From Escherichia coli (lineage in GTDB: Bacteria > Pseudomonadota > Gammaproteobacteria > Enterobacterales > Enterobacteriaceae): DNA of 1,333 nucleotides. Position numbers and translations under genes: made by a program. The stretch is from assembly GCF_003334785.1 (NCBI RefSeq), contig NZ_QOWV01000062.1; one strand, 5' to 3'. Numbering within the stretch: the stretch's first letter is position 1; the number at the start of each line of letters is the position of its first letter. Below the pieces are notes generated by a model, which searched no databases, was not told the origin of the DNA, and saw nothing but the letters and a program-made list of their open reading frames with translations. Positions 1 through 1,333 of the stretch are shown in pieces.

Positions 1-138
1 AGGTGTTTGCTGTTGTTCAATGTATTGGCGGATGACGGATATTGGCGCACCTCCGCAGCTACTGGCAAAATAGCCAGGACTCCACAAAACGCCTTTGTAG
101 TAATACCTGACTGCAATATCTGGTCGATCTCGTCGCAG
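1..138 (-). pseudogene. tnpA: C-terminal remainder of tnpA, in the same frame directly downstream of the TGA at 139-141; open to the window edge
   Basis: Minus-strand codons immediately after the TGA, in the same frame, read LRRDRPDIAVRYYYKGVLWSPGYFASSCGGAPISVIRQYIEQQQTP. This resembles the conserved TnpA C-terminus (LWS.SYF...GG...RQYIEQQ), including the helix carrying the catalytic tyrosine (Tyr codon at 22-24, minus strand). There is no stop before position 1. Confidence 0.75.
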
Positions 139-426
139 TCACCTACCCGATACGCCTTTGAGGCTGTTTACCAGACTGGATATCGCCAGTTTGGGAGGAT
201 AGTTAATTAACAAATGGACGTGATCTGGTTCGCCATCCATTTCAACCAGTTCAGCTTCAAAATAAGCACATACATTTGAAAAGTAAGTGCGTAGTTTTTC
301 TGTCGCGTCATGGTCAAAAATCTGACGTCGGTATCTGGTGACAAAGACCAGGTGAACATGCATCAGGAAAACACAATGCCTTCCACGCCGGATATCGGTT
401 TCTTTTTTCACAGACCAAAGTATCAT
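139..426 (-). CDS. tnpA: IS200/IS605-family Y1 (HuH) transposase TnpA, 95-aa N-terminal segment ending at a premature in-frame TGA (139-141)
   Basis: ATG is the reverse complement of 424-426. The translation MILWSVKKETDIRRGRHCVFLMHVHLVFVTRYRRQIFDHD...PDHVHLLINYPPKLAISSLVNSLKGVSGR contains the His-hydrophobic-His motif (H-V-H, minus-strand codons at 214-222) and an upstream HVHLVFVTRYRR strand, both typical of IS200-type TnpA. At 95 aa the ORF is too short for an intact TnpA (about 130-155 aa). Confidence 0.85.
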   Translation of the reverse strand: MILWSVKKETDIRRGRHCVFLMHVHLVFVTRYRRQIFDHDATEKLRTYFSNVCAYFEAELVEMDGEPDHVHLLINYPPKLAISSLVNSLKGVSGR

Positions 427-433
427 TTGGCCT

Positions 434-1189
434 GTGAAACGACTACAAGCATTTAAATTCCAGTTAAGACCCGGTGGTCAACAGGAGCGTGAAATGAGGC
501 GCTTCGCAGGCGCATGTCGTTTCGTTTTCAATCGTGCTCTGGCACGTCAGAATGAGAATCATGAGGTCGGTAATAAATACATCCCTTACGGGAAAATGGC
601 TTCCTGGCTGGTTGAGTGGAAAAATGCCACTGAAACGCAATGGCTTAAAGATGCCCCGTCACAGCCATTGCAACAGTCACTGAAAGACCTTGAGCGGGCT
701 TACAAAAACTTCTTCCGGAAGCGGGCTGCTTTTCCCCGATTCAAAAAGCGGGGACAGAATGATGTATTCCGCTACCCGCAGGGCGTTAAGCTCGATCAGG
801 AAAACAGCCGTATTTTTCTGCCGAAACTGGGCTGGATGCGCTACCGGAACAGCCCTCAGGTCACGGGTGTTGTGAAAAATGTCACTGTCAGCCAGTCCTG
901 CGGTAAGTGGTACATCAGTATTCAGACAGAAAGTGAAGTATCAACTCCGGTTCACCCTTCAGCATCAATGGTCGGGCTGGATGCTGGCGTGGCTAAACTC
1001 GCCACGCTGTCAGATGGCACAGTCTTTGAGCCTGTAAACAGTTTTCAGAAAAACCAGAAGAAGCTGGCGAGACTTCAGCGACAGTTAAGCCGCAAGGTCA
1101 AATTCAGCGACTGCATTCCTGTATCGCAAATATCCGCAGGGACTACCTTCACAAAGTCACAACGACCGTCAGCAAAAACCACGCAATGA
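434..1189 (+). CDS. tnpB: TnpB (IS605 OrfB-type RNA-guided RuvC-like nuclease), N-terminal 251-aa segment in frame 2; the last ~25 residues are out-of-frame read-through ending at TGA 1187-1189
   Basis: GTG start at 434-436 with no ATG or other start upstream in frame. The N-terminus MKRLQAFKFQLRPGGQQEREMRRFAGACRFVFNRALA matches the conserved TnpB N-terminal pattern. Further conserved blocks follow: WLKDAPSQPLQQSLKDLERAYKNFF, FPRFKKRG, FRYPQG, VTVSQSCGKWYISI, the RuvC-I block VGLDAGVAKLATLSDG (Asp codon 980-982) and KLARLQRQLSRKVK. After about codon 1106-1108 the frame-2 translation (DCIPVSQISAGTTFTKSQRPSAKTTQ) loses all resemblance to TnpB. Confidence 0.88.
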   Translation: MKRLQAFKFQLRPGGQQEREMRRFAGACRFVFNRALARQNENHEVGNKYIPYGKMASWLVEWKNATETQWLKDAPSQPLQQSLKDLERAYKNFFRKRAAFPRFKKRGQNDVFRYPQGVKLDQENSRIFLPKLGWMRYRNSPQVTGVVKNVTVSQSCGKWYISIQTESEVSTPVHPSASMVGLDAGVAKLATLSDGTVFEPVNSFQKNQKKLARLQRQLSRKVKFSDCIPVSQISAGTTFTKSQRPSAKTTQ

Positions 1190-1333
1190 TAGTCATTGAG
1201 GATTTGAAGGTCAGCAACATGTCAAAGTCAGCAGCGGGTACGGTCAGCCAGCCGGGGCGCAATGTCCGGGCAAAATCAGGTTTAAACCGTTCGATACTGG
1301 ATCAGGGCTGGTATGAAATGCGCCGCCAGCTTG
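1102..1333 (+). pseudogene. tnpB: TnpB C-terminal continuation in frame 1, carrying the RuvC-II motif; runs off the window end
   Basis: Frame 1 is open from 1030 to the window end. From about 1102 it reads IQRLHSCIANIRRDYLHKVTTTVSKNHAMIVIEDLKVSNMSKSAAGTVSQPGRNVRAKSGLNRSILDQGWYEMRRQL. This matches the conserved TnpB segment (ARLH..IAN.R.DFLHK......N..IVIEDLNV.GM...........GW.EF.RQL as I recall it from ISDra2-type TnpB), with the RuvC-II Glu codon at 1198-1200. The start coordinate is approximate because the frame junction cannot be placed to the base. Confidence 0.78.

Follow-up and report, generated by a model that had tools for sequence, protein, structure and literature searches.

Among described systems, the closest to the locus analysed here are the E. 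coli element IS609 with its tnpB gene insQ, the TnpB protein of ISDra2, which is the reference RNA-guided nuclease, and the TldR proteins. Cleavage by TnpB needs an Asp-Glu-Asp triad, represented in ISDra2 TnpB by D191/E278/D361. TldRs are conserved, selected genes that exhibit in-frame losses and have dedicated guide RNAs; these nuclease-dead TnpB derivatives are reportedly used as RNA-guided repressors, a role that Wiegand and colleagues are said to have described in 2024. A search of the literature on IS609/insQ and TnpB found nothing on the deletion allele described here, and one paper (PMC12781874) names IS609 TnpB only in a list of purified orthologues.

The window, by which we mean the whole 1,333-base stretch of DNA that was analysed, is an IS609-type IS200/IS605 element of E. 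coli with tnpA on the minus strand and tnpB/insQ on the plus strand (Table 1). Relative to IS609/insQ, represented by the K-12 protein WP_000826416.1 and the yedK-locus protein WP_000826464.1, it is the same element, with the same gene order, divergent gene starts and tnpA nonsense codon, but the window allele lacks 34 bp of tnpB and encodes a 251-aa truncated product only. The RuvC triad, zinc finger and linker length of ISDra2 TnpB (PDB 8bf8, 8exa, 8h1j) match those of the intact allele, although the latter is only a moderately diverged homologue (E=1e-54), and the window copy is broken between RuvC-I and RuvC-II. Like TldR, the window product has no complete RuvC active site; unlike TldR, the window allele is rare and carries a recent frameshift that ends in a nonsense tail.

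Table 1. Features of the IS609-type element in the window
Feature	Coordinates	Strand	Remarks
5' part of tnpB/insQ, native frame (frame 2)	434..1104	plus	residues 1-224 of the 402-aa protein; HTH_OrfB_IS605, RuvC-I Asp183
Out-of-frame tail of the 251-aa product, DCIPVSQISAGTTFTKSQRPSAKTTQ	1109..1189	plus	ends at TGA 1187-1189
3' part of tnpB, frame 1, IQRLHSCIANIRRDYLHK...IVIEDL	1102..1333	plus	RuvC-II Glu 1198-1200, equivalent to Glu267 of the intact protein
34-bp deletion junction	1104..1109	plus	alignment with the intact orthologous allele L002
tnpA (Y1 HUH transposase, IS200/IS605) pseudogene	1..426	minus	PGAP and translation; last 2 codons beyond the window start
In-frame TGA nonsense codon in tnpA	139..141	minus	related copies with an open frame have TTA (Leu)

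The window displays the arrangement that marks IS200/IS605 members, a Y1 HUH transposase gene, tnpA, adjoining tnpB, with tnpA interrupted. On the matched genes, RefSeq/PGAP annotates tnpA as an ‘IS200/IS605 family transposase’ on the minus strand with an ‘internal stop’, and plus-strand tnpB, starting at window position 434, as ‘frameshifted’ and encoding an ‘RNA-guided endonuclease InsQ/TnpB family protein’. The starts of tnpA (ATG, minus strand, 424–426) and tnpB (GTG 434) are divergent and 7 bp apart, so that each gene's promoter must sit within the coding sequence of the other. Motifs CCGTCCTTCAGGGC are visible at the element ends on both sides and are also conserved in the K-12 copy of the IS609-type element, which carries insQ. 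The chromosomal site reads emrE-ybcL-ybcM, the IS, then yedK-yedF-yedE(-yedD), with flanks at positions 183–2042 and 4648–7333 of locus L001, and only 39 bp lie between the tnpB and yedK stop codons. The genes emrE, ybcL and ybcM are presumably those of the DLP12 prophage region in K-12; with DLP12 genes on the ybcM side, the IS would mark the edge of a prophage remnant inserted beside yedK. At least 24 complete E. coli chromosomes, those of KSC64, UMNK88 and FDAARGOS_1248 among them, match the window with 100% identity. Of 5,426 complete E. coli genomes, 5,015 contain related sequence, at a median of 2 places each.

The tnpB open reading frame that begins at the GTG start codon encodes 251 aa in frame 2 and contains the GLDAG Asp codon (GAT 980–982, residue 183). 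The IVIEDL Glu codon, GAG, lies in frame 1, and the frame-1 part of the gene extends outside the window, where it encodes the zinc finger and RuvC-III Asp363. The frame-2 sequence RKVKFS occupies 1091–1108 and the frame-1 sequence IQRLH occupies 1102–1116. Frame 1 has its last upstream stop at 1027–1029 and is open from 1030, reading IQRLHSCIANIRRDYLHKVTTTVSKNHAMIVIEDL, and the two frames are open together over 1030–1186. Every position given in the sequence-only reading is confirmed, as is its view that, between RuvC-I and RuvC-II, the gene leaves frame 2 and continues in frame 1. Its identification of the gene as tnpB is corroborated by the ISDra2 TnpB alignment and the Pfam domains of the intact orthologous allele (HTH_OrfB_IS605 PF12323, 1e-13; OrfB_IS605 PF01385, 1e-34; Cas12f1-like_TNB PF07282, 6e-24), domains that place the intact protein in the TnpB/InsQ family and that are split over two frames in the window. 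No single open reading frame in the window holds the Asp-Glu-Asp triad, as Asp183 lies in frame 2 and the Glu and everything downstream lie in frame 1. Only the ancestral allele has the triad intact. Because the RuvC triad is split in this way, the window gene is a TnpB pseudogene and not a functional member of the family.

The origin of the switch was traced through an intact allele at the orthologous position. Two high-ranking matches to the window spanned 1,367 rather than 1,333 bases, in two pieces each; one of these, CFSAN061772 (L002), carries an intact 402-aa tnpB (WP_000826464.1) at the same site between ybcM and yedK. Alignment with this allele exhibits a single gap, where the window is without 34 bases, CAGCAACAACTGGCAGAAGCAGAAACGCAAAATA, that code for (S)NNWQKQKRKI; besides this gap, the two sequences differ by four substitutions across the window. 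As 34 = 3 × 11 + 1, 11 codons plus 1 base have been lost, in agreement with the net loss of 3n+1 bases that had been deduced from the reading frames, and because exactly this number is missing relative to the orthologous intact allele, the frame change is no chance pattern. When the 34 bp are restored in silico, a full-length open frame results. The frame switch is a 34-bp deletion between short repeats, neither a 1-bp indel nor programmed frameshifting. A multi-codon deletion had been considered plausible from the window alone, but the size suggested, ~25–28 bp, was close and too small. The other option, in which the linker was naturally shorter and a single base had been lost, had been rated equally possible and does not hold, since the intact linker is the same length as that of ISDra2 TnpB and aligns with it ungapped.

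In the intact allele, the deleted segment is bounded by AAATTCAGC and AAATACAGC, a direct repeat matching at 8 of 9 positions with a spacing of 34 bp. The repeat is an imperfect 9-bp sequence, AAAT(T/A)CAGC, with an exact 4-bp microhomology, CAGC (window 1105–1108), owing to which the junction can be placed only to within 1104–1109. This flanking repeat points to slipped-strand mispairing (replication slippage), or another short-homology deletion, as the most likely mechanism.

Sequence comparison identifies the 34-bp form as the ancestral one, since it has an open frame, its linker aligns ungapped with that of ISDra2 TnpB, and it is common to the K-12 paralogue and a plasmid relative. The alignment of the intact protein with ISDra2 TnpB (8bf8/8exa) covers residues 3–376, with no gap from RuvC-I to RuvC-II, and pairs Asp183 with the GVDVG Asp, Glu267 with the GTEHL Glu, and Asp363 with the RDENA Asp; the CxxC...CxxC zinc finger is also in register. 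No gap was seen in the linker relative to an AI-designed TnpB, and the plasmid relative (~92% DNA identity in the tnpA region) also encodes SNNWQKQKRKIQRLH. Once the 34 bp are put back, the window encodes a protein that is distinguished by 4 of 402 residues from WP_000826464.1 and by 9 of 402 from K-12 InsQ, WP_000826416.1. Two differences set the restored deletion allele apart from both K-12 and CFSAN061772, namely R141P (window 855) and E382G (in the region of L001 4578, outside the window), while R95Q and K96N are private to CFSAN061772. R141P and E382G would fit relaxed constraint, with numbers that are tiny and too small for a test. A further change, C336Y in K-12 InsQ, was considered as a zinc-finger break and rejected, as the two cysteines of this CxxC motif, C334 and C337, are kept.

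The deletion allele is rare. Among the 5,426 complete E. coli genomes, 29 match a 44-mer that spans the junction (window 1085–1128), each at a single, chromosomal place. The search for this 44-mer needs a 28-base seed, which undeleted copies cannot supply, so that the junction alone can match. In the same set, 4,867 genomes match a 58-mer centred on the undeleted segment, at 9,165 places in all. The sequence-only reading would have been contradicted by a frame-2 tail conserved among homologues; with 29 junction copies and 9,165 undeleted ones, these searches of the 5,426 E. coli genomes gave no indication that the truncated tnpB form is conserved. In all four carriers sampled, KSC64, UPEC85, LR-64-2 and JKHS016, which come from differing hosts and countries, the deletion lies at the same site between ybcM and yedK, and their flanks exhibit ~99.8% identity over 7.2 kb (blastn), with a 1–2 bp indel upstream. 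The context of these 4 of the 29 carriers, together with the single place per genome, indicates that the deletion probably arose once and marks a minority lineage; homologous recombination may also have spread the allele laterally. Carrier genomes contain 2–4 places per record that match the window. No IS609 was found in the first 50 kb of the deletion carrier E14, a region guessed from the coordinates of other strains. GenBank also contains the exact 251-aa product of two other strains, TA007 and 1-176-05_S1_C3 (EGB67968.1 and EZK08188.1).

The cluster formed at 90% identity that contains the 251-aa product has 5,340 members, and the 15 that are listed, at 114–251 aa, all fall short of the intact protein, come from E. 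coli or Shigella, and are mostly labelled partial. One 129-aa form in the cluster is found on 191 Shigella sonnei contigs. The tnpB gene appears to be often truncated, in many different ways and throughout the species.

The product translated from the native start consists of 224 native residues, followed by Ser 225, whose chimeric codon bridges the junction, and by the 26-residue out-of-frame tail. As had been foreseen from the position of the stop codon ahead of the RuvC-II Glu, the 251-aa product is without this Glu, the zinc finger and the RuvC-III Asp. With these catalytic residues missing, it is predicted to be nuclease-dead and should be unable to cleave DNA. Such a product might nevertheless be functional, either as a nuclease-dead RNA-guided binder or dominant-negative regulator of 251 aa, or as a split protein re-initiated at ATG 1186–1188, but we regard this as very improbable. 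The frame-2 stop and this ATG overlap as ATGA (1186–1189), and the overlap does open a 140-aa frame-1 open reading frame containing the RuvC-II Glu, zinc finger and RuvC-III Asp; however, no Shine-Dalgarno sequence precedes ATG 1186, which makes the overlap probably a coincidence, and 34 residues (226–259 of the intact protein) are absent from both pieces. Nuclease-dead TnpB derivatives exist in the form of TldR, whereas the allele considered here is confined to 29 of 5,426 genomes and one locus, bears no sign of selection and ends in out-of-frame residues; the few substitutions that separate it from K-12 and CFSAN061772 likewise fit relaxed constraint.

A candidate omega RNA region at the 3' end of the gene has been spared, which would favour a retained function. 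Rfam searches there (L001 4481–4664, equivalent to window 1481–1664 and beyond the window end) gave sub-threshold matches only, to RAGATH-18 (28 bits), HgcC (22 bits) and sot0042 (14 bits), and there is no curated model for the omega RNA of this element. In archaea, the families sot0042 and HgcC lie over the 3' ends of tnpB genes. From these sub-threshold matches, the tnpB 3' end, at the right end of the element, is most likely the candidate omega RNA site, untouched by the deletion. It is still less probable that the 251-aa fragment (HTH through RuvC-I), alone or with the 140-aa fragment, binds omega RNA and acts as a nuclease-dead DNA binder or as a dominant-negative on other IS609 TnpB copies. 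If it did so, the allele would capture the domestication of TnpB at an early stage.

Programmed ribosomal frameshifting (−1 or +2), which would fuse the frame-2 and frame-1 parts into a functional TnpB in the manner of the IS1 and IS3 transposases, can be given almost no weight. The overlap of the open frames at 1030–1186 makes a shift geometrically possible, but there is no slippery heptamer of the X-XXY-YYZ type within 1025–1190, as had already been noted for the junction, and no runs other than AAAAA (at 1049 and 1174) occur there. Nor is a two-frame arrangement kept in homologues, as expected of a programmed −1 frameshift: the intact orthologous allele and ~9,000 other copies use one frame, and the existence of a single-frame ancestral allele makes programmed frameshifting untenable. 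Even the product of a perfect shift would miss 11 residues of a linker that is ungapped relative to ISDra2 TnpB.

There is also hardly any prospect that the switch is a sequencing or assembly artefact that conceals a single frame in the true genome. Homopolymer errors often account for frameshifts in draft assemblies, but the change here is a 34-bp loss in non-homopolymeric sequence, and 29 complete genomes from varied laboratories, hosts and countries share an identical junction, with the exact 251-aa product reported from TA007 and 1-176-05_S1_C3 as well. As the same junction occurs in 29 independent complete assemblies, it is no error of assembly in a single record. The reverse polarity, in which the window is the ancestral state and the 34 bp are an insertion or duplication elsewhere, has nothing in its favour but the formal symmetry of the alignment and is dismissed as barely credible, given that the 34-bp form has the open frame, is ungapped to ISDra2 TnpB and without a linker gap relative to the AI-designed TnpB, and is the one found at the 9,165 places, among which are those of the K-12 paralogue and of plasmid relatives (~92%, tnpA region).

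The deletion lies in an element whose transposase gene is also disrupted. The HUH motif of tnpA reads HVHLL and its C-terminal Tyr lies in RQYIEQQ; the TGA codon interrupts the frame upstream of this presumed catalytic Tyr. Plasmid relatives that are 92–97% identical have TTA (Leu) in its place. The TGA is identical in the yedK-locus copy, whether its tnpB carries the deletion or is intact (as in L002), and in the paralogous K-12 copy between ydcL and ydcO (L007). The copies on the chromosome either spread once tnpA had already been inactivated, through mobilisation in trans or another copying route, or have been homogenised by gene conversion. The base after the stop on the coding strand is C (UGA-C), a stop context that is leaky in E. 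coli. With a nonsense codon in tnpA, the element is taken to be already immobile.

Considered together, these observations make it very probable that a single neutral event, a 34-bp deletion between short repeats, turned the tnpB of a decayed IS609 copy into a pseudogene. The copy occupies one fixed chromosomal site, with the ybcM-containing prophage remnant on one side and yedK on the other. There, 34 bp have been lost between the imperfect direct repeats, most likely by replication slippage or another short-homology process. The loss has removed the (S)NNWQKQKRKI codons and put everything downstream out of register by one base, giving the predicted nuclease-dead 251-aa product. Directly observed are the repeats, the deletion with its size, its rarity and its confinement to one locus; slippage, loss of nuclease activity and neutrality are deduced. 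From one origin, the deletion would then have been inherited vertically in a minority lineage. It would have been tolerated because the element was already immobile through the tnpA nonsense codon, and possibly also because the same genomes contain other tnpB copies.

PGAP already flags the gene as ‘frameshifted’, and the 251-aa product is in GenBank; the locus is an ordinary pseudogene that reflects routine IS decay. For annotation, it should be treated as a pseudogene, as in RefSeq, and the 251-aa ‘hypothetical protein’ entries in GenBank as truncation products. Frame switches in tnpB are best resolved through comparison with an orthologous allele. The locus provides a clean, fully resolved example of the decay of an IS cargo gene, through what would be a short-homology deletion in an element whose transposase was already dead, and as such it matters little.
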